The position numbers were made by a program, and so were the translations under genes. From contig OY969938.1 of assembly GCA_963704755.1 (NCBI GenBank), forward strand, positions 1,830,001-1,862,000: 32,000 nt of DNA. Direction: 5' to 3'. The notes beneath the pieces were generated by a model. That model did not search any database. It was not told where the DNA came from and worked only from the letters and a program-made list of their open reading frames with translations. This document shows, piece after piece, positions 3,275-29,256 of the stretch. The DNA is from an uncultured Chloroflexia bacterium. GTDB lineage: Bacteria > Chloroflexota > Anaerolineae > Anaerolineales > Anaerolineaceae. How positions within the stretch are numbered: position 1 is the stretch's first letter; the number at the start of each line of letters is the position of its first letter.

Positions 3275-4033
3275 ACTCATCCTCGTAATTGAATTACCGT
3301 AACATCTCATCCCTGTTGAAGGGGGTGTTGTTCACATCCAGATGGACTCGATTTATTCTAACACGGGCAGGTATGGTATGCAACTAAGCCAAAAGGCGGG
3401 ATCGGGGTTTATTCATAAAGTCGAGGCGGCCGCTGTGAAGCGGTTTCATCCCAAAAGCAAGAATTCTCTGCCCCAAAATCCTGTTACGGCCTTATCAATG
3501 TTAACAATTCTGGATTCGATTAAATCGTTAAGTTTAAGGTATAATACCGCTGTATCTTCTGATAAAGGGCCTTAACCGGCACCCGAGGTCTTTAACAAGG
3601 CAGCCTATATAAACCTATCCGGTTTCCAAACGTATTCGACCAATTGCTGGCTCATTTCATCTTGCCCTGATGAGAAGATACTGAAGCAGCCAATTAGTTC
3701 CACTGCCACTAGACCACTGATTTACGGGGCCATGTGTAAAATTTAATAAATTTTTGACCCGCTTAATGACAACAGCTTAGATTGGGTCTGATGCCTGTGT
3801 GGCATCCCCATTTTGCCAATGCAGTATTGTAGTCTGTCGAAATAGTGAGGCGGTATGAGTTGCACTGGCGTAGTCTTTTTATCGGAGGGCAGGTCTTTAG
3901 CTGCTCAAGCTGTTGCCCATGCGGGCGGAAAAGTCGTAAAAATGTGGATGAGAAGCCGTTTCATCCATCCGCATAGTTATTTATTCGACTTTTTTCAGCC
4001 CGTTTCAGGCAGCCACACTGGTTTATTCTAATA

Positions 4034-4759
4034 ATGTCTGGAAGACAAACAATGCAGAAGAACGTTTCCATTTTGCTGGTTGAAGGCAAAAGATCTGACC
4101 GGGCTTCCTTTTTAGCTGGCCTGACTAAAAAGAAATTCCAGGTCGAGAGCGCACCCAGCGGTGCAGCTGCCTTGGCACGAATTGAAGAAAACAATCCCGA
4201 TATTATTATCATCGACGCTGCCTCCATGCGGACCAGCGGAAAACGGATTTGTTCCTCGTTAAGAGAGAAGGCCCCAGGAGTCCCTATCGTGCTCATCCTG
4301 GACGAGGCTACCCCCAATAATAACGACCAGGACGTAAACGTCGTTCTCAACCTGCCGTTTACCTTGCAAAAGTTACTCAACCGAATCAAACCCTACCTGC
4401 CCCAGGAACCCAAAAACGTGGTTCGAGCCGGCCCGATCTACCTGGACGTGCAGAACCGCTCGGTCCGCTGTATGGATCACCAGGCCCTGCTGACCCCGCG
4501 CCTGGTCCTGATTTTGCGCCTGTTGATGGAACACGCCGGCCAGGTGATCGAGCGCGAAGCGCTCTTCAGCCAGGTGTGGGATACCACCTACACCGGCGAT
4601 ACGCGCACCCTCGACGTTCACATCAGTTGGCTGCGCCAGGCCATCGAAGACGATCCCCGCCATCCGCGCTATATCAAAACCGTTCGCGGCCTGGGTTACC
4701 GCCTGGACGTTGACGATTTGCAAAATCTCAACGGCCGCTTCACCAAAAAAAGATACTGA
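4034..4759 (+). CDS. OmpR/PhoB-family winged-helix response regulator with atypical receiver domain
   Basis: The C-terminal domain (LTPRLVLILRLLMEHAGQVIEREALFSQVWD......TRTLDVHISWLRQAIEDDP..PRYIKTVRGLGYRL) is a classic Trans_reg_C domain. The N-terminal domain has a CheY-like fold and retains the Asp in IIIIDAAS. The alternative start at 4052 (MQKNVSILLVEG) has a weak GGAAG upstream and may be the real one. Confidence 0.85.
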   Translation: MSGRQTMQKNVSILLVEGKRSDRASFLAGLTKKKFQVESAPSGAAALARIEENNPDIIIIDAASMRTSGKRICSSLREKAPGVPIVLILDEATPNNNDQDVNVVLNLPFTLQKLLNRIKPYLPQEPKNVVRAGPIYLDVQNRSVRCMDHQALLTPRLVLILRLLMEHAGQVIEREALFSQVWDTTYTGDTRTLDVHISWLRQAIEDDPRHPRYIKTVRGLGYRLDVDDLQNLNGRFTKKRY

Positions 4760-6492: not shown

Positions 6493-6537
6493 TTTTGAGT
6501 GTTATTGTGGGGCTAAGCCCCACAATAACACTCAAAA
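6493..6537. repeat. perfect 21-bp-stem palindrome with 3-nt loop between convergent genes
   Basis: TTTTGAGTGTTATTGTGGGGC-TAA-GCCCCACAATAACACTCAAAA. I paired every base by hand (6493-6513 with 6517-6537). A-tracts and T-tracts on both sides give it the look of a bidirectional terminator, but the stem is unusually long. Confidence 0.85.
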
Positions 6538-6550
6538 TTATCTCCTTAAC

Positions 6551-6745
6551 GCCTTCTCCCTCCCAGGGAGAAGGTGGGGATGAGGGTAGATGCCCGCCAG
6601 GGAAATGCCCTGTTGTTCAGCCAGGGCCTGGTCCGGCCGGCGTTGGCCCTCACCCCAACCCCTCCCCCAGAAACAGGAGAGGGGCTAAGAAAGCCCTCCC
6701 TTCCCCCCCAATTGCGGGGGAAGGGAGGGTCGGGAGGGATGAAGG
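6551..6745. repeat. cluster of three family-1 short palindromic repeats (CCCTCTCCC..GGGAGAGGG hairpin plus GGGGTGAGGG-type tail)
   Basis: Copy a, 6551-6587: CCTTCTCCC-TCCCA-GGGAGAAGG then TGGGGATGAGGGT. Copy b, 6646-6685, opposite orientation: GCCCTCACCCCAAC then CCCCTCCCCCAGAAACAGGAGAGGGG. Copy c, 6694-6745: perfect 14-bp stem CCCTCCCTTCCCCC/GGGGGAAGGGAGGG then TCGGGAGGGATGAAGG. The same family occurs at 16955-16996 and 27798-27838. Confidence 0.7.
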
Positions 6746-9928: not shown

Positions 9929-10026
9929 GATGGAGTCCTTTGTTGGATGAGTATATCTGACCTTCGGACCTTGTGCAATCTCTGGTTTCAACCTGATCGT
10001 GGAATTATTCAGCTTCGTGGTGCAGA

Positions 10027-10087
10027 ATTGCCGAATTGGATGAGATTGCGCTGGCGTAGACAGCACAAACTCATCCAATTCGGCAAT
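10027..10087. repeat. perfect 18-bp inverted repeat with 25-nt spacer in a divergent promoter region
   Basis: ATTGCCGAATTGGATGAG (10027-10044) and CTCATCCAATTCGGCAAT (10070-10087) are exact reverse complements. The spacer is ATTGCGCTGGCGTAGACAGCACAAA and contains GTAG. It lies 55 nt upstream of the GTG start at 10142. Confidence 0.85.
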
Positions 10088-10141
10088 TACTTTATCTGAA
10101 TTCCGCTTGTCTCACTTTTAACCCCGTGATAAACTTTTAAC

Positions 10142-11569
10142 GTGCAAAAGAAGGTTCTGGTCGTCAGCTTCAACCCTGCTTTTCGAGATCTGTTGCGCCG
10201 CGGCCTGGAAGAAAGCGGGCGTTACAGCCCGGTTTTAGCGCCTGAGACAGACGCGTGGGATTCACACCTCTACCGTGACGACTTTGATCTGATCCTGGCC
10301 GACCTGGCCACCGGTGAGGAAAACGCCCGAACTATTTTATCCAACCTGGACCGGCTGGCCCCAGACCTGGCGCCGGTCGTGTTCCCGCCCGAAAACGACC
10401 CGCAGCATCCCTGGCTGGAAGACCGAAAGCTGGCCGCCTGCCTGATAAAGCCACTCCATTTATCGGCCCTGCTGGAGGCGCTCGATTCCATCTGTGGACA
10501 GCCGGCCGGAGTGAACGATTGGTACCCCGAGGTCATCCTAGATCCACCCACCCTGGCCAACCTGTTGGCGGACACCCAGGCGACGGCAGGTGTCTTATTG
10601 GAATCCGGCCAGGCTGCTACCATCGCCGGCCAACTGGACGCCGCCGGTGGGGCCGAGGTCACCACGCTGCTGCCCGTCCGGGGAAATGACCTGCCCGGTG
10701 ACCTGGTGCGCTATGCCCACCTGGCAGCCACCGGCCAGGACCATTTGCTTTACGGTGTCTGTTTGAGTGGAGACCGCCTGCTGGTCCTGATTTTCCCGGC
10801 CGAAGTCTCCTACACCCGCGCCCGCGCCGACAGCCAATCTGTGATGGCCATCCTGCAGCCGCGCTCGTCCGTCCCGGCCCGCCAGCCCAACCTGGCCCCC
10901 CTGCCCGAGGTCCAGGATTTGCCCGAAGACGAACCCTCCGCCCCGGCCACGCTGGACCAGCTTTCTCAGCCGGAACCGGACGCAGCCGCATCATTTGCCG
11001 ATTTGCTGGCCGGTAAAGCGGATCCGGCGGGTGAATGGGCTCACGAGCCGAATTTTGAGCAGACGGCTGCTCTCACCGAAGAGTCCTTACCGGCTCCGGC
11101 CGGCCCGGACCTCACGCTGGAAGACACCCGGCCCAATCACCCCGGCAATCCGCCGCCCCCGCTCGAGGCCGGCTTCGTTCCCGCCGCCCAGAAATACACC
11201 TGCGTACTGGTTCCGACCCTGCCCGAGACCAGCCTGGCCGGTGAACCGGGCCAGGCGTTAGCCGCCTGGCTGCAGGAATTCTGCCAGACCTTTGGCTGGC
11301 AGCTCGAGCGCGTCCAGGCCGAGCCGCATTACCTGCTCTGGACGGTCACTTTTACCCCACCCGGTACGCCCGGTCACCTGGCGCGCACCCTGCGCCAGCA
11401 GAGTTCGCGCCTGTTAAACGAGAAGTTCCCCCAAATCTCCGGCGTATTGAACGGGAAAGACTTCTGGGCCCCCGGCTTTTTGCTGGTCAGCGGTGGACAG
11501 GCTCCCCAGCCGGCCCAGATCGAGGACTACATTCAACAGACTCGCACACGCCAGGGCTATCCATCCTGA
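10142..11569 (+). CDS. pseudo-receiver (CheY-like) domain protein with C-terminal degenerate IS200/Y1 (HUH) transposase-like domain
   Basis: GTG start with no obvious SD. A TTGTCT-17 nt-TAAACT promoter-like pair at 10107-10135 ends 6 nt before the start, so the mRNA may be leaderless. Residues 1-115 are receiver-like (KVLVVSFN, DLILADL, CLIKPL). Residues ~352-470 parallel IS200/IS608 TnpA: YTCVLVP, EPHYLLW at the HUH position, FWAPGFLLVSGG, EDYIQQT. A long Pro/Ala/Glu-rich linker sits between the two domains. Confidence 0.8.
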   Translation: MQKKVLVVSFNPAFRDLLRRGLEESGRYSPVLAPETDAWDSHLYRDDFDLILADLATGEENARTILSNLDRLAPDLAPVVFPPENDPQHPWLEDRKLAACLIKPLHLSALLEALDSICGQPAGVNDWYPEVILDPPTLANLLADTQATAGVLLESGQAATIAGQLDAAGGAEVTTLLPVRGNDLPGDLVRYAHLAATGQDHLLYGVCLSGDRLLVLIFPAEVSYTRARADSQSVMAILQPRSSVPARQPNLAPLPEVQDLPEDEPSAPATLDQLSQPEPDAAASFADLLAGKADPAGEWAHEPNFEQTAALTEESLPAPAGPDLTLEDTRPNHPGNPPPPLEAGFVPAAQKYTCVLVPTLPETSLAGEPGQALAAWLQEFCQTFGWQLERVQAEPHYLLWTVTFTPPGTPGHLARTLRQQSSRLLNEKFPQISGVLNGKDFWAPGFLLVSGGQAPQPAQIEDYIQQTRTRQGYPS

Positions 11570-11634: not shown

Positions 11635-14412
11635 ATGCCGCCAACTTTATACCTGATCGACGGCCATGCGCTGGCTTATCGCACTTACTTTGCCTTGAGC
11701 ATGACCAGTCAGAAATTTTCTACCGCTGAGGGCGAGCCAACCGCCGGGACATTCGGCTTTGCCAGCGTCCTGCTGCGCCTTCTGGAACAAGACCAACCCG
11801 AATACCTGGCCGTCGCCTTCGATACCGGGCGGACCTTCCGCAACGACATGTACCCGGAATACAAAGCCACCCGCGCCAAAATGCCGGATGACCTGCGCCC
11901 GCAGATCGAGCGCATCCGCCTGATGGTCGATGCGCTCAACATCCCGCGGATCGAACACGAAGGCGTGGAAGCCGACGACGTTCTTGGCAGCATTGCCCGC
12001 CAGGCGGTCGCCAAGGGTTTTGGGGTGAAGATCATCACCGGCGACCGCGACCTGCTGCAGTTGGTAGATAACCGTATCCTGGTCAACCTGCCCGAGGGCA
12101 AGCTCTCCGACGCAAAAGATTTTGGTCCCAATGAGGTCATGGCAAAGCTGGGTGTTCGGCCCGACCAGGTTGTGGATTACAAAGCCCTGGTGGGGGATAA
12201 ATCCGATAACATCCCCGGCGTGGCCGGCGTGGGGGAGAAGACCGCCATCAACCTGCTGGAAAAATACCAGACCCTGGATGAAATTTACGCTCACCTGGAC
12301 GAAGTGGCCCCGCGGGTGCGCAACCTGCTGGAAAAGTCGCGCGAGAACGCCTATCTCAGCCAGGACCTGGCCACCATTCGCACCGACGTACCGGTCGTGC
12401 TCGACCTGGAAAAAGCCCGTACCAGCGGGATCAATTTGCCGGCGGCCGAGCAATTATTTATCCAACTTGAATTTCGTTCACTCATCCCGCGTTTGAAGAA
12501 ACTCGAAGGCCAGGTTGTGCCGGTCAACGATGGGCAGCAGTTAGCCCTCTTTGGCCAGCCGGTGGTGCAGATCGGCGAACCCGCCCCGGTCGATATTACC
12601 GTCAAAGTGGTCGATTCCGAAGCGGCCCTGGCCGAATTGACGGCGGCCCTGGAAAAGGCCAAACTGATCTCCTTCGACACCGAAACCACCTCGACCGACC
12701 CAATGAGCGCCGGCCTGGTAGGCATCTCCCTGGCCGTCCAACCCGGGGAAGGCTATTACATCCCGGTGGGCCACACCACCGGAGAGCCGCAACTGCCCGT
12801 GGCGCAGGTAATCGAAGCCCTGCGACCGGCCATGAGCGACCCGCACAAGTCCAAGGTCGGGCACAACCTCAAATACGACTGGTTGATGCTGGCCCGCCAG
12901 GGCCTTGAATCCGCCCCCCTGGATTTTGATACCATGATAGCGGCTTTTTTGGTCCAGCCGGACAGCTACAACCTGGGGTTGAAAGATATGGCCCGGGCTT
13001 ACCTGGGTTTGGCCATGACCCACATCGAGGAATTGATCGGTAAGGGCAAGAACCAGACCACCATGAATGTCGTACCCATCCAGCAGGCCGCCAGCTATGC
13101 GGCCGCCGATGCGGAGGTTTGCCTGCGGCTGATGCCTGTGATGCAAAAACGCATGGAGGAGGTCCAGGCGGCCAGGCTCTTCCATGAGATCGAAATGCCC
13201 CTGGTTCCGGTGCTGGCCCAGATGGAACGTAACGGCGTGGCGCTGGATGTAGACCTGCTCAAGAAAATGTCGGTTGACCTGACCAAACGCCTGGGTGAGA
13301 TCGAGACCGAAATCTACGACGGGGTGGGCTATACCTTCAACCTCAATTCCACCCAGCAGCTTTCCAAGGCGCTCTTCGAAACCCTGCGCCTGGAGCCGCC
13401 CGATCGCCGCAAGAAGACCTCCTCCGGCCATTTCTCCACCTCGGCCGATGTGCTGGAAGAGATCCGCCAGCAGCACCCGGTAGTCGAATGGATCCTGGAA
13501 TATCGCGAGCTGTCCAAGCTCAAGTCCACCTACGTGGACGCGCTGCCCCTGCAAGTCAACCGGGTTACCGGGCGCGTGCACACCTCCTACAACCAGACCG
13601 GCTCGGTCACCGGGCGGCTGGCCTCCTCCGACCCCAACCTGCAAAATATTCCCACGCGCACCGACACCGGCCGGCTGGTGCGCAATGCCTTTGTCGCCGG
13701 TCCGGGGCTGAAGCTGTTGGCCGTGGATTATTCGCAGATCGAGCTGCGCATCGTGGCCCACATGGCCAAAGACGAGGCCATGTTGGACGCCTTCCGCGAA
13801 GGGCAGGACATCCACGCCACCACCGCAGCCGCGGTATACGGCGTGCCCCTGAACGAGGTCACCAAGGACCAGCGCCGCCACGCCAAAGCGATCAACTTCG
13901 GCTTGATCTACGGGATGAGCTCGTTCGGCTTGAGCCGCGCCACCGACCTGACCCTGGGCGAGGCGGAGAATTTCGTCAAGGCCTATTTCAAGCGCTTCCC
14001 GGCCGTCAAGAGTTTCCTGGATGGCATCCGCCTCCTGGCCAAAGAACAGGGCTACGTGGAAACCCTGCTCGGCCGCCGGCGTTATTTCCCCAACCTGAAG
14101 AACCCGATCAACAAGGCCATGGTTGCCCGCGAAGAGCGCGAGGCCATCAACGCGCCTGTACAGGGCACTGCCGCCGATATCCTCAAGATCGCCATGGTCC
14201 GTATGCCGGCCGCGCTGGACGCAGCCGGGCTGCACGCCCGCATGCTCTTGCAAGTCCACGATGAGCTGGTGCTGGAGGTACCTGAGGAAGAACGCGATTT
14301 GGCCACCCGGACGGTCAAGCAAATTATGGAAAATGCCTATCCCCTTTCTATCCCACTGCTCACCGAGGCGCGCTGGGGCCATAACTGGGGCTCTTTACAG
14401 GTGTTGGATTAA
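11635..14412 (+). CDS. polA: DNA polymerase I (5'-3' exonuclease, 3'-5' exonuclease and polymerase domains)
   Basis: 925 aa. The 5' nuclease domain has LIDGHALAYRTYFA and ITGDRDLLQL. The exonuclease domain has ISFDTETTS. The polymerase motifs are A (DYSQIELRIVAH), B (RRHAKAINFGLIYGMS) and C (LQVHDELVLEV). AAGGTGA SD upstream. Confidence 0.97.
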   Translation: MPPTLYLIDGHALAYRTYFALSMTSQKFSTAEGEPTAGTFGFASVLLRLLEQDQPEYLAVAFDTGRTFRNDMYPEYKATRAKMPDDLRPQIERIRLMVDALNIPRIEHEGVEADDVLGSIARQAVAKGFGVKIITGDRDLLQLVDNRILVNLPEGKLSDAKDFGPNEVMAKLGVRPDQVVDYKALVGDKSDNIPGVAGVGEKTAINLLEKYQTLDEIYAHLDEVAPRVRNLLEKSRENAYLSQDLATIRTDVPVVLDLEKARTSGINLPAAEQLFIQLEFRSLIPRLKKLEGQVVPVNDGQQLALFGQPVVQIGEPAPVDITVKVVDSEAALAELTAALEKAKLISFDTETTSTDPMSAGLVGISLAVQPGEGYYIPVGHTTGEPQLPVAQVIEALRPAMSDPHKSKVGHNLKYDWLMLARQGLESAPLDFDTMIAAFLVQPDSYNLGLKDMARAYLGLAMTHIEELIGKGKNQTTMNVVPIQQAASYAAADAEVCLRLMPVMQKRMEEVQAARLFHEIEMPLVPVLAQMERNGVALDVDLLKKMSVDLTKRLGEIETEIYDGVGYTFNLNSTQQLSKALFETLRLEPPDRRKKTSSGHFSTSADVLEEIRQQHPVVEWILEYRELSKLKSTYVDALPLQVNRVTGRVHTSYNQTGSVTGRLASSDPNLQNIPTRTDTGRLVRNAFVAGPGLKLLAVDYSQIELRIVAHMAKDEAMLDAFREGQDIHATTAAAVYGVPLNEVTKDQRRHAKAINFGLIYGMSSFGLSRATDLTLGEAENFVKAYFKRFPAVKSFLDGIRLLAKEQGYVETLLGRRRYFPNLKNPINKAMVAREEREAINAPVQGTAADILKIAMVRMPAALDAAGLHARMLLQVHDELVLEVPEEERDLATRTVKQIMENAYPLSIPLLTEARWGHNWGSLQVLD

Positions 14413-14527
14413 GTGCCTGGAAAAAAGCATCAACTTTGCGGATTTGTTATCCTGCCAGCTTTGCTTTCCGGGCAGGTTTAGGGTAAATTTGTAGAAGTGA
14501 TTCTTTTCTCAAGCTGGAGTGCCCAAC

Positions 14528-16855
14528 ATGCCCGCTGACCAGAGTAAATTCGAAAAAGCCTTGAACGACGGCCATTCAGCCGCCTGGGACCAGCATTGGG
14601 AAGAAGCTGCCAATTATTACCGCGCCGCCCTGGAAGAATTTCCCAACCACGCCGGCGCACTGGCCAGCCTGGGATTGGCGCTCTTCGAACTGCAAGACTT
14701 CGACCAAGCCCTGGAAGTGTACCAGCGCGCATCCATCCTCGCCCCCAAGGACCCGGTCGCCTTCGAGAAAATGGCCCGCATTTACGAGCGTATTGGCCAA
14801 CTGGGCGATGCGGTCAGAAGCGGCATGCAGGCCGCCGAACTGTACCTGGAAGCCCACGACATCGACAAGTCGATCGAAGACTGGGTCCGCGTAACCAGCC
14901 TTCAGCCCGAAAACATGACCGCCCACACCCGCCTGGCGGTGATCTATGAGAAGATGGGCCGCAAGCCCGAGGCGGTGGCGGCTTACCTGAACGTCGCCAG
15001 CCTTTTCCAGCACCGAAAGGATATCGCCAAGGCTACCCAGGTCGTTCAATACGCCCTCAAGCTGCTGCCTGGCAGCCCCGATGCCAGCGAGTATATGCAG
15101 CTCCTCAAGAGCGGCAACAACCTGCCGCGCCCGGTCCGCCCGCGTGGGGGCACCGGCCCGGTGCGCATGGCCGAGATACGCCAGCTCCAGTCCAGTGAAG
15201 ACACCCATGCGGCGGTCCAATCCGACCCGATCAGCGAAGCGCGCCAGAACGCCCTGGTGCAGTTGGCCGGGCTGCTGTTCGAGCAGTCCGAGGAGATCGA
15301 AGAGACCAACGACCAGGCCAACCGTCACAAGATCAATGCCCTGGCGCGCGGTACCGGCGGCCTGTCCCTGGACCATACCGAACAATCCCGTGTGCTGCTC
15401 CACCTGGGGCAGGCCATCGAATCCCAGACCCATAACGACGAAAACCAGGCCCTGGACGAGCTCAACCGGGTTTACGAAGTTGGCTTTTCACACCCGGCCC
15501 TGCATTTCAACCTGGGCTATTTGTATTCTTCCCGTGACTCGGCCAAGGCCATCCGTTCACTGAACAAATCGGTGAAAAACCCGGATTTCTCGCTGGCTTC
15601 GAACCTGCTCCTGGGAAAGATCTATTACGATGCCGGCAAATACAGCGAAGCCGCCATCAATTACCTGCAAGCCCTGCGCCTGGCGGATATTACCACGGTG
15701 CCGGAAGGGCAAAAAGAGCAGTTGCGCCAGCTCTACGAGCCGGTGATCGAGGCCCAGGCTAACCAGACCGACGATCCCCAGCTCAAGTCCATCTGTGAGA
15801 CCATCGCCGGCCAACTGATCCAGCCGGATTGGCGCCTTCTGCTCCTGCAGGCCCGCCAGCAGCTTCCGATTCTCGCGGAAGGGGCCCCGCCGATGCCGGT
15901 ATCCGAGATTCTGCTCGAAACTCGCAGCGCGCAGGTGATCGAATTGCTGGCCAATATCCGCACTTATGAATCCCAGGGCATGGACCGCACGGCCATGGAA
16001 GAGGCCTTTTACGCCCTGGATTACGCCCCAACGTACCTGCCGCTGCACATCGAAATCGGCGACCTGTTGGCCAAAGAGGGCAAAGTCGATGACGCCGTGC
16101 GCAAGTACATGCTCGTTACCCAACTATACAACTTGCGCGGCGATGCCACCCAGGCGATCAACCTGTTGACCCGTGTTACCCAGATCGCCCCAATGGACCA
16201 GTCGGTGCGCGACCGTTTGATCGAACTGCTCACCGAGCAGGGCCGCATCGATGACGCCATCCAGCAATACATGGAACTGGCCGACATGTTCTATCGCCTG
16301 GCCGAGATGGACCGCACCCGCCAGACTTATTTGACTGCCATGCGCCTGGCCAAGCAGTCCGCCCGCAACCGCCTGTGGGCCTATCAAATCCTCAGTCACC
16401 TGGCCGACATCGACGTGCAAAGGCTGGACTGGCGCCAGGCCCTGCGGTTTTACGAACAGATGCGCACCCTCCAGCCCGAGGACCAGGTCCCGCGCAACCG
16501 CATCGTGGACCTGAACTTCCGCCTGGGTCAAGACCCGGCGGCTTACTCCGAGCTGGACAATTACCTGGACCTGCTCGAAAACAGCCGCCAGCTCAACGAG
16601 GCGATCGCTTTCCTGGAATGTCTTTTGGAAGACTATCCTGACAAGTCCAACCTGCGCCGCCGCCTGGCGAACGTTTTCCTCAAGGCCAGCCGGACGGCCG
16701 AAGCGATCAGCCAACTGGATGCCCTGGCCGACGCCTACCACGAAGCCGGCGAGATTCGCAACGCCATTCAGGTGGTCGAAGAAATCATCCAGCTCAATCC
16801 CCCCGACCGCGACCAGTTCGAAGCCGTGTTAAAGGATTTGCGCAAGGAAGTGTGA
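14528..16855 (+). CDS. tetratricopeptide-repeat (TPR) protein
   Basis: About 775 aa of recurring 34-residue A/L/Y-patterned helical repeats, for example ALEVYQRASILAPKDPVAFEKMARIYERIGQLGDAV. The ORF track starts at the GTG at 14519. The ATG at 14528 has GGAG 8 nt upstream. Confidence 0.85.
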   Translation: MPADQSKFEKALNDGHSAAWDQHWEEAANYYRAALEEFPNHAGALASLGLALFELQDFDQALEVYQRASILAPKDPVAFEKMARIYERIGQLGDAVRSGMQAAELYLEAHDIDKSIEDWVRVTSLQPENMTAHTRLAVIYEKMGRKPEAVAAYLNVASLFQHRKDIAKATQVVQYALKLLPGSPDASEYMQLLKSGNNLPRPVRPRGGTGPVRMAEIRQLQSSEDTHAAVQSDPISEARQNALVQLAGLLFEQSEEIEETNDQANRHKINALARGTGGLSLDHTEQSRVLLHLGQAIESQTHNDENQALDELNRVYEVGFSHPALHFNLGYLYSSRDSAKAIRSLNKSVKNPDFSLASNLLLGKIYYDAGKYSEAAINYLQALRLADITTVPEGQKEQLRQLYEPVIEAQANQTDDPQLKSICETIAGQLIQPDWRLLLLQARQQLPILAEGAPPMPVSEILLETRSAQVIELLANIRTYESQGMDRTAMEEAFYALDYAPTYLPLHIEIGDLLAKEGKVDDAVRKYMLVTQLYNLRGDATQAINLLTRVTQIAPMDQSVRDRLIELLTEQGRIDDAIQQYMELADMFYRLAEMDRTRQTYLTAMRLAKQSARNRLWAYQILSHLADIDVQRLDWRQALRFYEQMRTLQPEDQVPRNRIVDLNFRLGQDPAAYSELDNYLDLLENSRQLNEAIAFLECLLEDYPDKSNLRRRLANVFLKASRTAEAISQLDALADAYHEAGEIRNAIQVVEEIIQLNPPDRDQFEAVLKDLRKEV

Positions 16856-16875
16856 GCGGGTGAAACCGTGACTAA

Positions 16876-16947
16876 GTGTTACGGTGTTACGGTGTTTCAG
16901 TGTTTCAGTGTTTCAGTGTTTCGGTGTCACGGTGTTACCGTGACATT
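16876..16947 (+). repeat. 8-nt microsatellite, about 9 copies of GTGTTNCR
   Basis: GTGTTACG GTGTTACG GTGTTTCA GTGTTTCA GTGTTTCA GTGTTTCG GTGTCACG GTGTTACC GTGACATT. It begins 21 nt after the TPR stop. Confidence 0.9.
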
Positions 16948-16954
16948 GTTGTTT

Positions 16955-16996
16955 GGCCCCTCTCCCGCTTCTGGGAGAGGGGTTGGGGAGAGGGCC
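16955..16996 (+). repeat. family-1 palindromic repeat copy
   Basis: GGCCCCTCTCCCGCTTCTGGGAGAGGGGTTGGGGAGAGGGCC. It is near-identical to 27798-27838 and related to the three copies at 6551-6745. Confidence 0.85.
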
Positions 16997-17985
16997 AGCC
17001 CCGGTCATCCCAGGCTCACGTTATTTTCCATCGAAAAAAACATTGTTCGGGCCGGTCTCTCCCTCCGCCTTTCAGGCTTCGGCCGAGCCCGCTCTTCAAC
17101 GCGTGTTTGGAAGCCAGCCTGTAGGTTGGGTTGCGGGCTCGATCGCAACATTGGTTATTGGGAAAAACATATCCCAACCCGGGTTTTGCCCGTAACCCAA
17201 CTGGGTATCGCAAACGTTGGGTTTCGGGCAGAGCCCGGCAAAACAAAATGCCCTTCCGTATGCCAATGCCATAAAAGAGCCCGCAACCCAACCTACACGA
17301 ACGCCATGGATAAATAGTGAGGGCCAGCGCCGGTCATCCCAGGTTCACGTTATTTTCCATCGAAAAAAAACATTGTTCGGGCCGGTCTCTCCCTCCGCCT
17401 TTCAGGCTTCGGCCGAGCCCGCTCTTCAACGCGTGTTTGGAAGCCAACCCACGTAGGTTGGGTTGCGGGCTCGATCGCAACATTGGTTATTGGGAAAAAC
17501 ATATCCCAACCTGGGTTTTACCCGTAACCCAACTGGGTATCGCAAACGTTGGGTTACGGGCAGAGCCCGGCAAAACAAAATGCCCTTCCGTATGCCAACG
17601 CCATAAAAAGCCCGCAACCCAACCTACACGAACGCCATGGATAAATAGTGAGGACCAGCCCCGGTCATCCCAGGCTCACGTTATTTTCCATCGAAAAAGC
17701 CATTGTTCGGGCCGGTCTCTCCCTCCGCCTTTCAGGCTTCGGCCGAGCCCGCTGTTCAACGCGTGTTTGGAAGCCAACCCACGTAGGTTGGGTTGCGGGC
17801 TCGATCGCAACATTGGTTATTGGGAAAAACATATCCCAACCTGGGTTTTGACCGTAACCCAACTGGGTATCGCAAACGTTAGGTTACGGGCAGAGCCTGG
17901 AATGTTATGCGGCCCGGCAATTTTCCGGCGTTCATAATGAGCCCGCAACCCAACCTACACGAACTACACGAGCGCATGGATGAAT
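16990..17985 (+). repeat. tandem array A: three head-to-tail copies of a ~330-bp composite unit, each containing a 176-bp element with perfect 18-nt terminal inverted repeats
   Basis: Unit starts (GAGGRCCAGCSCCGGTCATCCCAGG) are at 16990, 17319 and 17650. GTAGGTTGGGTTGCGGGC...GCCCGCAACCCAACCTAC occurs at 17121-17296, 17453-17627 and 17783-17958. By eye, copies differ by only scattered substitutions and 1-2 nt indels. Confidence 0.9.
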
Positions 17986-17986
17986 A

Positions 17987-18013
17987 AAAACCCGGCTTTG
18001 AAAGCCGGGTTTT
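17987..18013. terminator. bidirectional intrinsic-terminator-like hairpin (family-3 CGGCTTTGAAAGCCG motif)
   Basis: AAAA-CCCGGCTT-TGA-AAGCCGGG-TTTT: an 8-bp stem extended by A/T pairs, with an A-tract 5' and a T-tract 3'. It sits 35 nt downstream of the minus-strand SagB-like stop (18048). The same core hairpin recurs at 20790-20806 and 28036-28054. Confidence 0.7.
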
Positions 18014-18015
18014 AA

Positions 18016-18044
18016 ATCTGTGTCCATCCGTGTCTATCTGTGGC
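18016..18044 (-). repeat. CACAGAT-type short repeat block, inverted partner of 27717-27744
   Basis: The reverse complement, GCCACAGATAGACACGGATGGACACAGAT, compares with GCCACAGATAGCACAGATGGACACAGAT at 27717-27744. The 11-nt 5' and 12-nt 3' ends are identical. The middle differs by about 3 changes. Confidence 0.8.
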
Positions 18045-18047
18045 TTA

Positions 18048-18801
18048 TTACTCCACCTTGCGCTTGCCCAACGAGGCCACGTAGACCACGAACTGGTTCT
18101 TCCCATCCAGGCCCAGGGCGGCATTGAGCAGGTCATCGTCGTAGGCCGCGATGGCGCAGGTCCCGCAGCCCAGCGCCTCGCCCACCAGGTACAGATTCTG
18201 GCAAACGTGACCCGCATCCAGCAGAATGTAGCGATAGCCGCGCTCGGAATAACGCCAGGTCGTGCGCTCGGCCACGGCTGCCCACATAAACGTCACCGCC
18301 GAATTCGGCCACCTGGCTCTGGTCATCGCAGCCATGGGTAACCCGCCCGTTGACGTCGCCGCCTCCATCCACCAGGATCAAAGTGTGCTCCAGCGCGGCA
18401 TAACGGTACAGCCCGGGCTGCAGCCCATCCACCCGGTTGACCAGCAAATAAGTCTCGAAGGGATGCCGCGCACCCGCCGAAGGGACCGTTCGGAAAGTAG
18501 CCGGCCGGCTGGTGACCCGCTTGACCCCCTGGGTGTACCACAGCAGCGTGGACAGCTCGTCCAGGGTCAGGGCCTGGTCACTGTAATGGCGCAAGGTCCT
18601 GCGCTTCTCGATCATCTGCCACAGCCCGGCGCCCGGCAGCTTCAGCTCGCGCGGGTCGGCCAGCTTGATATTCGTAGCCGCAGCCGGATCGAAAGGCAGC
18701 TCCAACGCCGGCTGGGGCGAAACGCCTTTCTCCTGGTCGGATACGGGCAAATTAACCTGTTTGCTCTGGTCCCAGAATTTTTTCCCGATGGATTCGCTCA
18801 T
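18048..18801 (-). pseudogene. SagB-type dehydrogenase / nitroreductase-family protein, interrupted by a frameshift
   Basis: Frame A (18801 downward) carries the N-terminal half: RRTLRHYSDQALTLDELSTLLWYTQG...RTVPSAGARHPFETYLLV...GLYRYAALEHTL. Frame B (ending at 18048) carries the C-terminal half: AVTFMWAAVAERTTWRYSERGYRYILLDAGHVCQNLYLVGEALGCGTCAIAAYDDDLLNAALGLDGKNQFVVYVASLG. The switch is near 18297-18310 (GAATTC). Removing one base there gives ...QVAESAVTFMW... and a continuous protein of about 250 aa. Confidence 0.7.
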
Positions 18802-20505: not shown

Positions 20506-20562
20506 CGAGACTATTATAACTGGGGTGGGAAGAGAGTAGAGATTAGAAATGAGAGATTAGTC

Positions 20563-20656
20563 AATGAGGCGAGAAGGCAAAAAGGTGATGAGGTAATGGG
20601 GCAACAAGGTAACAAGGCAATGGGGCAACGAGGCGATGAGGCGATGAGGCGACAAG
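20563..20656. repeat. degenerate 9-nt purine-rich microsatellite (pyrimidine-rich on the murJ sense strand)
   Basis: AATGAGGCG AGAAGGCAA AAAGGTGAT GAGGTAATG GGGCAACAA GGTAACAAG GCAATGGGG CAACGAGGC GATGAGGCG ATGAGGCGA. It lies 58-150 nt upstream of the murJ start. Confidence 0.7.
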
Positions 20657-20668
20657 GATAGCAGCATT

Positions 20669-20930
20669 GTAGCCCGGCTTTCGAGGCCGGGTCTTCGCGC
20701 CAACCGAATATAGCGCTCGCGTAGAGCTGGGTTCGAGCCGGTCCCTCTTTGCCGCCGGCTAAGCCCACTCTTCGATGCAATTTTAAGGGGCCGGCTTTGA
20801 AAGCCAGACTACCCACTGCGATTCGTTTTTGATTGCCAGTAATTTTGGCGCGGTCAAAAAAAAAATGAACCCCACGAAGGTGGGGCTTTGTGTACTTGTA
20901 GGTGCAGCTTTAGCTGCTGTTTGCTAAGAT
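20669..20930 (+). repeat. decayed mosaic of the same repeat modules (GTAG hairpin, family-4-like, family-3 hairpin, partial array-B H2/H3)
   Basis: GTAG+CCCGGC-TTTCGAG-GCCGGG at 20669-20691. GTTCGAGCCGGTCCCTCTTTGCCGCCGGCTAAGCCCACTCTTCGATGC parallels the family-4 module. GGCTTTGAAAGCC+AGACTAC is at 20793-20812. CCCCAC-GAAG-GTGGGG at 20870-20885 is followed by TTGTAGGTGCAGCTTTAGCTGCTGTTTGC, which parallels H2-H3 of array B. Confidence 0.5.
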
Positions 20931-23545: not shown

Positions 23546-23900
23546 TTGCTATTTCGCGCTCCCTTCGAAATATGTTCCAAATCAAGCCCTTCGTATTCTT
23601 TTTCGGAAATCGTTAACCAAACAACCCGATCTTAGACAGGCGAAACCTTCCCAGCTACCTGGAAAAAACGCAGCCTATCTAAAAACGGTTTTCTTATCCA
23701 AAATATGGAAGGCCCGAGTTGGAGTTGGTTTTAAGCCATTTAAAGTTCATGCCGAAGGTAGGGGCTTCTGGCCTGCCTGGCTTAAACCACTAATCCTTGC
23801 TATTAATTACGGTAGCAAATGCAGAACAACCTTCCCATAAAACGAAGATAAATTTTGGCCTAATTCCGTGTGAAGACAAAATACCCTGAGAAGGCACTCT

Positions 23901-23943
23901 CCGTATTTGTACCGGGTGGCAATGCCACCCGGTACAAATACGG
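23901..23943 (-). terminator. perfect 20-bp-stem palindrome immediately downstream of the decarboxylase operon
   Basis: CCGTATTTGTACCGGGTGGC-AAT-GCCACCCGGTACAAATACGG. It ends 8 nt from the stop of the beta-subunit gene (23952). There is no adjacent U-tract on the operon strand, so a terminator function is assumed, not shown. Confidence 0.5.
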
Positions 23944-23951
23944 AATAATCT

Positions 23952-27744: not shown

Positions 27745-27797
27745 AAAGATTTTTTTTGGAAGAATTGGGTTGGATTAGGCGTGGTTGGGATTAGTTG

Positions 27798-27838
27798 GGC
27801 CCCTCTCCCGTTTCTGGGAGAGGGGTTGGGGTGAGGGC
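27798..27838 (+). repeat. family-1 palindromic repeat copy
   Basis: GGCCCCTCTCCCGTTTCTGGGAGAGGGGTTGGGGTGAGGGC, preceded by GGTTGGATTAGG/GGTTGGGATTAG short direct repeats. Confidence 0.85.
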
Positions 27839-27963
27839 AGGCCCCGGTCTTACCGGGTGCATGCAGGTTGGGTGAGCGCTTTTTTACAAGCCTTAACCGC
27901 CTACAAACCCAATGGTTCTTAGCATGGGGTTTGTTGTTATATGTTGTTAAACGGTATAAAAGC

Positions 27964-28054
27964 CATTGTTCGGGCCGGTCTCTCCCTCCGCCTTTCAGGC
28001 TTCGGCCGAGCCCGCTCTTCAGCGTATGCCTAGAACTCGGCTTTGAAAGCCGGG
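27964..28054 (+). repeat. family-4 module followed by family-3 hairpin
   Basis: CATTGTTCGGGCCGGTCTCTCCCTCCGCCTTTCAGGCTTCGGCCGAGCCCGCTCTTCAGCG is almost identical to 17041-17103 and to its copies in array A. CTCGGCTTTGAAAGCCGGG follows. Confidence 0.85.
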
Positions 28055-28081
28055 CAACCATCCACCGGCTCGGAATTTTTT

Positions 28082-29256
28082 AGTCGAGGTGATATTGTTG
28101 GGTTCGGGCAAAACCTTTGCAGATAAACACCAGGTGTCTGGCCAGTGTTGTCAATCCGCCCGAACCCAACCTACGCGAGCGCTGTAAATCAACCGCACAA
28201 AAGTTTACATTGAGCCCCACGAAGGTGGGGCTTCGTGAATTTGTTGCCGCGACCTCGGTCGCCAACGCATGTCGAAGAACCCGTCTTCGAAAGTCAAGCT
28301 ACCATACCGCTCCACCGAATTTTCAAGTCGGGGTGATATTGTTGGGTTCGGGCAAAACCTTTGCAGATAAACGTCTGGAATCTGGCCAGTGTTGTCAATC
28401 CGCCCGAACCCAACCTACGCGAACGCCGTTATCATCGGGTAAAAAATCTGAATTGAGCCCCACGAAGGTGGGGCTTCGCGAATTTGTTGCCGCGACCTCG
28501 GTCGCCAACGCATATCGAAGAACCCGTCTTCGAAAGTCAAGCTACCATACCGCTCCTCCGGATTTTCAAGTCGAGGTAATATTGTTGGGTTCGGGCAAAA
28601 CCTTTGCAGATAAGCGCCAGGTGTCTGGCCAATGTTGTCAATCCGCCCGAACCCAACCTACGCGAGCGCCGTTATCATCGGGTAAAAAATCTGAATTGAG
28701 CCCCACGCAGGTGGGGCTTCGTGCATTTGTTGCCGCGACCTCGGTCGCCAACGCATATCGAAGAACCCGTCTTCGAAAGTCAAGCTACCATACCGCTCCT
28801 CCGGATTTTCAAGTCGAGGTAATATTGTTGGGTTCGGGCAAAACCTTTGCAGATAAGCGCCAGGTGTCTGGCCAATGTTGTCAATCCGCCCGAACCCAAC
28901 CTACGCGAGCGCCGTTATCAGCGGGTAAAAAATCTGAATTGAGCCCCACGCAGGTGGGGCTTCGCGAATTTGTTGCCGCGACCTCGGTCGCCAACGCATA
29001 TCGAAGAACCCGTCTTCGAAAGTCAAGCTACCATACCTCTCCTCCGGATTTTCAAGTCGAGGTAATATTGTTGGGTTCGGGCAAAACCTTTGCAGATAAG
29101 CGCCTGGAATCTGGCCAATGTTGTCGACGAGCCCGAACCCAACCTACGCGAGCGCTGTAAATCAACCGCACAAAAGTTTACATTGAGCCCCACGAAAGTG
29201 GGGCTTCGTGCATTTGTTGCTGCGACCTTGGTCGCCAACGCATATCGAAGAACCCG
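28082..29256 (+). repeat. tandem array B: about 4.8 copies of a 243/244-bp four-hairpin unit
   Basis: Unit starts (AGTCGRGGTRATATTGTTGGGTTCGGGC) are at 28082, 28326, 28569, 28812 and 29055. The last copy breaks off after ...CGAAGAACCCG near 29256. Confidence 0.92.

Follow-up and report, generated by a model that had tools for sequence, protein, structure and literature searches.

The three tandem units at positions 16990–17985 of the window (the whole stretch of DNA analyzed, 32 kb of a 4.87-Mb chromosome) very probably form a cluster of GTAG-tagged REPs of the GTAGGTTGGGTT family, in which a head-to-head dimer has been triplicated in a REPIN/BIME-like, and more specifically BIME-2-like, arrangement. 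REPs, a class of small bacterial DNA repeats recognized long ago, are presumably propagated by a dedicated RAYT enzyme. Within this cluster, here called array A, the 176-bp element of each unit joins two REPs head to head, with GTAG at its outer ends, as in a REPIN or a BIME-1-like unit. Its two inverted REPs, separated by a spacer of 14 nt, can fold together as one long hairpin, and the dimer is reiterated in tandem with its linker (three units, 94–96% identity). The array is extragenic, and all 11 tagged REP units in the 32 kb lie in two tandem arrays, with no dispersed singletons. The half-units exceed the canonical REP length of 20–40 nt by a factor of two to three.

The limits of array A were set by TRF, alignment, and repeat families. 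TRF reported a period of 330 bp, 2.7 copies, and 96% matches over 16990–17897, and the alignment of the three units (16990–17318, 17319–17649, and 17650–17985, with 329 and 331 bp between starts) gave a mean column identity of 94%. Every unit contains the tail of a family-1 repeat, a family-4 module, and the REP dimer, and the duplicated segment starts with the tail of the family-1 palindrome, continues with the hairpin-forming family-4 module, and passes through the dimer as far as ...GGATAAATAGT. The dimers were located at 17121–17296 (copy 1, 176 bp; halves 17121–17201 on the plus strand and 17216–17296 on the minus strand), 17453–17627 (copy 2, 175 bp; halves 17453–17533, plus, and 17548–17627, minus), and 17783–17958 (copy 3, 176 bp; halves 17783–17863, plus, and 17878–17958, minus). 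Their terminal arms show 100% complementarity across 20–21 nt, and the perfect GTAG-tipped inverted ends measure 18–21 nt. With unit lengths of 329 and 331 bp, the reading frame changes from copy to copy, and the 206-aa ORF that spans units 2 and 3 had no homologue but itself among 5.8 billion proteins; array A is non-coding. An earlier note on this DNA had described three tandem units of ~330 bp, a non-coding array, elements of 176 bp with perfect GTAG-tipped ends, and an internal hairpin built from the same core and perfect in copy 2, and all of these observations were upheld.

Each half of the array A dimers is 78–81 nt long and comprises an unpaired 5′ GTAG, a stem of 13–16 bp that opens with the invariant GTTGGGTT, and an interior of 42–53 nt. 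When half-units were folded as single-stranded DNA, GTAG was left unpaired and pairing began at the next base in all those folded. GTAG stands directly before the stem in all six half-units of array A and in all five units of the second array, array B. The full head, GTAGGTTGGGTT, has 11 copies in the window, where 0.11 would be expected; six of them make up the three inverted pairs of array A, and the other five belong to array B, all on the minus strand. The 8-mer GTTGGGTT was present 21 times, against 1.2 expected, with every copy inside one of the two arrays.

The three dimers are not identical. The inner hairpin, CCCGTAACCCAAC-14 nt-GTTGGGTTACGGG at 17521–17560, is perfect in copy 2 only, which is also the sole copy whose nested and inner pairings are both perfect. 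The inner core is altered in copy 1 (GTTGGGTTTCGGG) and in copy 3 (GACCG..., GTTAGGTT) by single, uncompensated changes. Furthermore, ~40 nt of the right-half interior of copy 3 (roughly 17899–17940) have been swapped for an unrelated sequence of equal length. As the stems were retained and the replacement interior has no second occurrence within the 32-kb window, this interior was probably acquired by exchange with another genomic copy.

Array A sits between two convergent genes, one for a TPR protein of 778 aa (plus strand) that ends at 16855 and one for a nitroreductase-like protein (minus strand) that ends at 18048. Just past the TPR stop codon lies an 8-nt tandem repeat (GTGTTACG, about eight copies, 16876–16948, plus strand), ending in a terminator-like hairpin at 16922–16948. 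On the other side, array A is closed by a GC-rich hairpin with T-runs on both strands (CCCGGCTTTGAAAGCCGGG, 17989–18015), likely the terminator of the nitroreductase-like gene. Both the convergent neighbors and the closing terminator-like hairpin had been recognized in the earlier note. Homologues of the TPR protein place the organism among Anaerolineae-like Chloroflexota, with the nearest orthologues merely 62–64% identical. Three orthologous loci retain the gene order, namely a receiver/Y1-like protein, PolA, and TPR, with nitroreductase and MurJ on the opposite strand. At their TPR/nitroreductase junction, the genes either overlap by 4 bp (−4) or stand 37 bp apart, compared with about 1.2 kb here, and the GTTGGGTT core is absent from all three loci. 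This comparison marks the 1.2-kb spacer as a gain specific to the lineage, the site being empty in these relatives. Exact-protein look-ups with the nitroreductase-like and MurJ ORFs of the window returned no match; their start codons or frames differ from those of called genes.

Array B (28075–29256, minus strand), 10 kb away, consists of 4.9 head-to-tail units of 243 bp, as delimited by TRF. Each unit holds one single REP of the array A family together with other hairpins. These REPs, of 78 nt each, lie on the minus strand at 28097–28174, 28341–28418, 28584–28661, 28827–28904, and 29070–29147, and the copies of array B diverge from one another in a graded fashion, like those of array A. The hairpin H1 of array B, which had been noted as sharing its core with array A, is such a single minus-strand REP. 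The remainder of the array A unit had been attributed to a family-1 tail and a family-4 module, and both are indeed shared with 27794–28035. The family-4 module, which forms a hairpin and travels with the REP dimer, occupies 17035–17112 (plus strand) in unit 1, with further copies at 17365–17442, 17695–17772, and 27958–28035. The family-1 palindromic repeat (GCCCCTCTCCC...GGGAGAGGGGTTGGGGAGAGGGC) lies at 16951–17014 (plus strand), with other copies at 6626–6688 (minus strand) and 27794–27857; its tail alone, from 16990, falls in the duplicated unit. The order family 1, family 4, REP recurs ahead of array B.

The distribution of the GTAGGTTGGGTT family was examined by scanning GTDB genomes with the pattern GTAGGTTGGGTT N45-75 AACCCAAC, which matched at least 120 stretches. 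The matches listed come from Cyanobacteria, Alpha-, Beta- and Gammaproteobacteria, Desulfobacterota, Chloroflexi, Poribacteria, and Brocadia, the Chloroflexi among them being L013, L098 (a Longilinea MAG), and L108. Symmetric head-to-head dimers of 69–99 nt account for 64 of the matches listed. These have the layout GTAG-GTTGGGTT-loop-AACCCAAC-A, spacer, T-GTTGGGTT-loop-AACCCAAC-CTAC, which corresponds to two inverted hairpins of ~30 nt with GTAG outside, and in 48 of the 64 the cores follow the forward-reverse-forward-reverse order of array A. A second form, with 43 representatives among the matches listed, is a single hairpin of 65–83 nt in which the stem is extended and the interior long, and it is to this long single-hairpin form that the half-units of array A belong. 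The signature GTAGGTTGGGTTAG...CGTAACCCAAC was found in 29 of these 43 listed hairpins, and in those 29 the second stem covaries: cells with both sides changed numbered 65 versus 22 in shuffles, and the covariation score was 0.338 versus 0.086, a value reached by none of 500 shuffles and far above the slid controls. Such covariation of the second stem indicates that the hairpin is under selection in the GTAGGTTGGGTT family. Stem variants differ between Chloroflexi-type units, and for the variant of array A (GTTGGGTTGCGGGC) the JGI metagenomes yielded no true relative. A scan of these metagenomes with GTAGGTTGGGTT(N)CGGGC gave 69 matches, of which ~62 were chance matches without a partner arm, ~7 were true REPs, and none was of the array A type. 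A literature search with the core as a text string yielded unrelated primers only.

Two further readings of these sequences were set aside. The long REPs might be thought to carry hypervariable, spacer-like interiors, but copies within one genome have a central motif in common and do not vary in length, and the interiors are thus diverged copies rather than acquired spacers. Integron attC sites came into question through GTTGGGT and ACCCAAC, which fit GTTRRRY and RYYYAAC; the order of the boxes along the strand is, however, the reverse of that in attC.

Each array A element folds far better than shuffled sequences on both strands (z about −7). The nested fold, with an outer helix of 18–21 bp and an inner one of 13 bp, reaches −82 to −100 kcal/mol and beats two side-by-side hairpins by 20–32 kcal/mol (RNA parameters). 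Folds of such stability, the availability of both structures, and G-T positions in the side-by-side stems that would become G-U pairs in RNA could all be accommodated by three structured non-coding RNA genes, or by a cis-acting RNA switch that toggles between the nested and the two-hairpin fold. We nonetheless consider such an RNA very improbable. The Rfam search proposed in the earlier note (Rfam 15) found no family in the window at the gathering score, and matches at E ≤ 1 were at chance level only, the best reaching 26.9 bits versus a gathering score of 74 bits. No sigma-70-like promoter was found in or near the units (16600–18300), and terminator-like hairpins bracket the array. The two strands fold equally well, as would those of a DNA palindrome, and the pair-breaking changes in copies 1 and 3 are without compensation. 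Furthermore, the two folds follow from the geometry of any inverted pair of REPs, the four-core layout being generic to REP dimers (48 of the 64 listed), and so lend no support to a designed switch; nor does a nested fold that wins by so wide an energy difference make a balanced one. The elements had been likened to a structural switch or a REP doublet. The REP doublet stands, but the switch, which had been drawn from the two mutually exclusive folds, does not.

The reading of array A as REPs gains from the genes found beside the same head in other genomes. Two of the 120 listed loci hold an ORF that matches the NCBIfam model NF047646 (REP-associated tyrosine transposase, cut-off 80 bits), at 209 and 168 bits. 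The RAYT of Nostoc (L048) is bracketed by a dimer (3836–3923) and a single REP (4623–4653), and in Methyloglobulus (L014) a dimer begins at the last codon of the RAYT. Using the Nostoc RAYT as a query, we retrieved proteins of 180 aa, 64–68% identical, in MAGs labeled Anaerolineae and Desulfobacterales/Desulfobacteraceae; for the RAYT contigs assigned to Anaerolineae, the taxonomy rests on short MAG contigs. One of these, P0209 (L266–268, Anaerolineae-labeled), has an upstream REP composed of GTAGGTTGGGTGACGG, about 40 nt, and CCGTCACCCAAC, and an inverted REP downstream; the upstream copy (L266:2528) is 76 nt long and built like the halves of array A. A short REP and a dimer flank the RAYT P0195 (L263, Anaerolineae-labeled), and one short and two long-interior REPs flank P0217 (L269, a Desulfobacteraceae MAG). 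REPs with GTAGGTTGGGT(T) thus adjoin RAYTs in five other genomes (L048, L014, L263, L266–268, and L269), two of them labeled Anaerolineae, and L266 and L269 include RAYT-flanking REPs of 76 to about 100 nt. With the GTAGGTTGGGTT head widespread and adjoining RAYT genes in this way, GTAG plus a palindrome had been rightly taken for the REP signature. The RAYTs next to GTAGGTTGGGTT REPs carry DHLH, WE, and YIHYNP, the motifs of subclass 2.2 (equivalent to group 2). For the REPs of this subclass, the published description reads “long, long with bulge” (PMC6006769). The best 120 RAYT matches included none from the source genome, nor did the GTDB stretches listed; a cognate RAYT and dispersed copies would be expected in the source organism.

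The window itself contains a Y1/IS200-like ORF (10142–11569), which we reject as the partner RAYT. The ORF has no match to NF047646, and its score against the IS200 model, 45.8, falls below the cut-off of 55. Its HUH position reads PHYLL, and orthologues have ESYLQ or PDYLQ, with both histidines missing; the catalytic tyrosine is a phenylalanine in one orthologue. In relatives, it is a conserved syntenic gene beside polA.

Perfect terminal inverted repeats, a size typical of MITEs, and a site that is empty in relatives could also point to the 176-bp element being a MITE, that is, derived by deletion from a DDE-type insertion sequence and mobilized via its 18–21-bp terminal inverted repeats. 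This is more doubtful still than a structured RNA. Target-site duplications are absent from the array A element, whose flanks read ...CCAC|GTAGG and CCTAC|ACGA..., and duplications of 3 or 4 nt are absent from all 64 listed dimers (for k = 3, none versus one expected). The ends correspond to a REP head that lies beside Y1-type RAYT genes, not DDE genes, and the same head is also found as single hairpins in array B. Finally, that the threefold repetition is an assembly artefact, with a real copy number of one or some other value, is scarcely credible: although the short-read contig L001 of the same organism, identical to window positions 13573–16921, stops in the 8-nt tandem repeat just ahead of array A, and a frameshift in a neighboring gene hints at leftover assembly errors, the units are set apart by scattered substitutions, an indel of 2 nt, and the replacement of one interior over 40 nt, array B is likewise graded in its divergence, and a collapsed or inflated repeat would not yield such scattered differences.

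Reading array A as a cluster of REP dimers suggests how it might have arisen. By analogy with the family, each half would fold into a hairpin in single-stranded DNA, and a RAYT (TnpA-REP, an HUH/Y1 enzyme) would recognize this hairpin and its GTAG foot. By cutting and rejoining the DNA there, the enzyme would seed copies without target-site duplications. One dimer, together with about 150 bp of adjoining repeat modules, may then have been triplicated in situ through slippage or unequal recombination, in the manner of BIME-2, and an exchange with another copy probably swapped one interior. Positioned between two terminator-like hairpins and with no promoter-like site, array A is probably a largely passive element that acts, if at all, at the level of DNA. 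Any effect it has may be of the kind usual for REPs between convergent genes, as a termination barrier or, alternatively, a binding site for gyrase or IHF. We would further raise, as a speculation that is rather unlikely to hold, that in this Anaerolineae lineage the GTAGGTTGGGTT REP/RAYT system shifted its mode of spread from dispersed short REPs to satellite-like blocks, in which REPs of ~80 nt are amplified in place with neighboring modules, interiors are exchanged, and the blocks are perhaps co-opted, where genes converge, as barriers or topological elements.

REP dimers reiterated with flanking DNA have already been described, both for BIME-2 and by Di Nocera et al. (2013). Array A is notable only for how long its hairpins are and for being found in Anaerolineae, and it is best regarded as an unusually large but ordinary example of a REP doublet. 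In practical terms, a conspicuous non-coding block of 1.2 kb and another one at a distance of 10 kb are explained as REP clusters, and neither an ORF nor a new RNA gene should be annotated there. Array A also accounts for the break of this organism's short-read assemblies at the locus. An Anaerolineae example with unusually long hairpins joins the REP/RAYT lineage, with a 12-nt head conserved over several phyla. Researchers concerned with the persistence of REP/RAYT systems may take an interest in this conservation and in the preference that Chloroflexi apparently show for tandem blocks, although no new question is opened.

Among known systems, the REPINs that Bertels and Rainey are said to have described in 2011 in Pseudomonas fluorescens are reportedly dispersed in hundreds of copies and regarded as a mobile unit replicated by a single-copy RAYT. 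Array A resembles them in its inverted REP doublets, each able to form a single long hairpin, and in lacking a target-site duplication. Unlike those REPINs, the copies in the window are confined to two tandem blocks, and they differ in sequence family and in size. The likeness to BIME-1 and BIME-2 of Escherichia coli (REP Y/Z pairs, with the TnpA-REP/RAYT YafM) extends to GTAG-plus-hairpin REPs in inverted pairs, to units reiterated in tandem with linkers, BIME-2 being tandem BIME-1-like units (PMC2817692), and to an extragenic placement, often between convergent genes. The partner RAYT of the E. coli system belongs to subclass 2.2 (group 2), with motifs as in the RAYTs beside the GTAGGTTGGGTT family. 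The REPs of array A are, however, 78–81 nt long with interiors of 42–53 nt, compared with about 35 nt in E. coli, and its repeat unit of 330 bp includes unrelated repeat modules.

Further parallels come from the GTAG families of Di Nocera et al. 2013 (PMC3733652), where head-to-head dimers are the preferred form and dimers are reiterated in tandem with flanking DNA. Array A shares the GTAG tag, the head-to-head dimers, and the clusters of dimers plus flanking DNA with the families treated there, which include GTAG REPs of the Chloroflexi member T. roseum (GTAG-23) that form large blocks at few loci. Our guess is that GTAGGTTGGGTT corresponds to the GTAG-15 family, whose cyanobacterial REPs have loops of 9–15 nt, whereas the interiors in arrays A and B are far longer than 15 nt. 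The RAYT-linked REP of Coxiella burnetii (GTAGGTTGGGCTGAGCTTGCGAAGCCCAAC, which reads GTAGGTTGGGCT...; Nunvar et al. 2010, PMC2817692) is short (30 nt) and gammaproteobacterial, with the core GGGCT in place of the GGGTT found here. Its head is nonetheless nearly the same (GTAGGTTGGG), its stem follows the same logic, and its link to a Coxiella RAYT is documented (PMC2817692).

Array B, the second tandem block of GTAG-tagged repetitive extragenic palindromes (REPs), occupies window positions 28075-29256 and consists of five 243-bp units arranged head-to-tail. Each unit carries one 78-nt REP on the minus strand, of the same family as those in array A, together with a GAGCCCCACGAAGGTGGGGCTTCG hairpin and a GCGACCTCGGTCGC hairpin; one further copy of the GAGCCCCACGAAGGTGGGGCTTCG hairpin was found at 20863-20899. 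Within the array B REPs, a short interior patch exists in two versions, CCAGGTGT and CTGGAAT, which alternate between units. In array A, the right-hand REP of unit 3 has its whole interior (17899-17940) swapped for unrelated sequence of equal length, with both stems retained. No second copy of this replacement interior was detected anywhere in the window, and its lone occurrence, together with the retained stems, suggests exchange with an unseen copy.

The family-4 module, CATTGTT-CGGGCCGG...CCGAGCCCG-CTCTTCAACGCG, was located at 17035-17112, 17365-17442, 17695-17772, and 27958-28035. It has a frame in common with the array B REP, comprising ATTGTT, CGGGC...GCCCG, and CAACGCG, and judged on sequence it may be a decayed REP without the GGGTT core. 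A further degenerate REP head, GCAGGTTGGGTGAGCGC, lies at 27863.

Other repeats were also present in the window. The family-1 palindromic repeat, GCCCCTCTCCC(N6-7)GGGAGAGGGGTTGGGG(A/T)GAGGGC, has three sites, all intergenic (6626-6688 on the minus strand, 16951-17014, and 27794-27857). Two gene ends are followed directly by short tandem repeats, one of 8 nt (GTGTTACG; 16876-16942) and one of 8/16/24 nt (GGCAACAAGGTGATGAGG...; 20562-20657). The nitroreductase-like gene on the minus strand (18048-18801) is split between two reading frames by a frame shift near 18310-18332, while each orthologue consists of one ORF (246-248 aa). The gene here is either a pseudogene or carries a residual assembly indel error.

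Perfect palindromes with 22-nt arms and 1-nt loops were seen at 6493-6537 and 23900-23944, and an imperfect palindrome, with 28-nt arms that are 93% complementary (10026-10088), sits just 5' of a plus-strand gene for a 475-aa Y1-like protein (10142-11569; orthologues L002:1418-3004 and L004:1577-3049). The N-terminus of this protein is receiver-like, and its C-terminal part is an IS200/Y1-like domain from which the HUH histidines have been lost; one orthologue also lacks the tyrosine. Three Anaerolineae-like genomes conserve the gene in the position directly preceding polA. The protein has the appearance of a domesticated Y1 fold without catalytic activity.

Beyond this genome, the matches listed include 29 copies of a "long with bulge" REP class (loci L012-L116; alignment A3), drawn from Cyanobacteria, Alphaproteobacteria, and Gammaproteobacteria and built as GTAGGTTGGGTTAG-stem, 35-45 nt, stem-CGTAACCCAAC-A. 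Across these copies the bulged G is invariant and the second stem covaries, while the interiors diverge fast at constant length. Short-loop REPs of the window's family occur in 69 stretches (L194-L262) of IMG/VR contigs, viral by database label, and in several of these they are arranged as dimers. Finally, among the best 120 matches (P0122-P0241) to the Nostoc REP-associated tyrosine transposase (RAYT), a clade of exactly 180 aa shows 64-68% identity between Nostoc and metagenome-assembled genomes labelled Anaerolineae or Desulfobacterota, and is accompanied by an identical 12-nt REP head (L048, L263, L266, and L269). Such conservation fits either cross-phylum transfer or very strong constraint.
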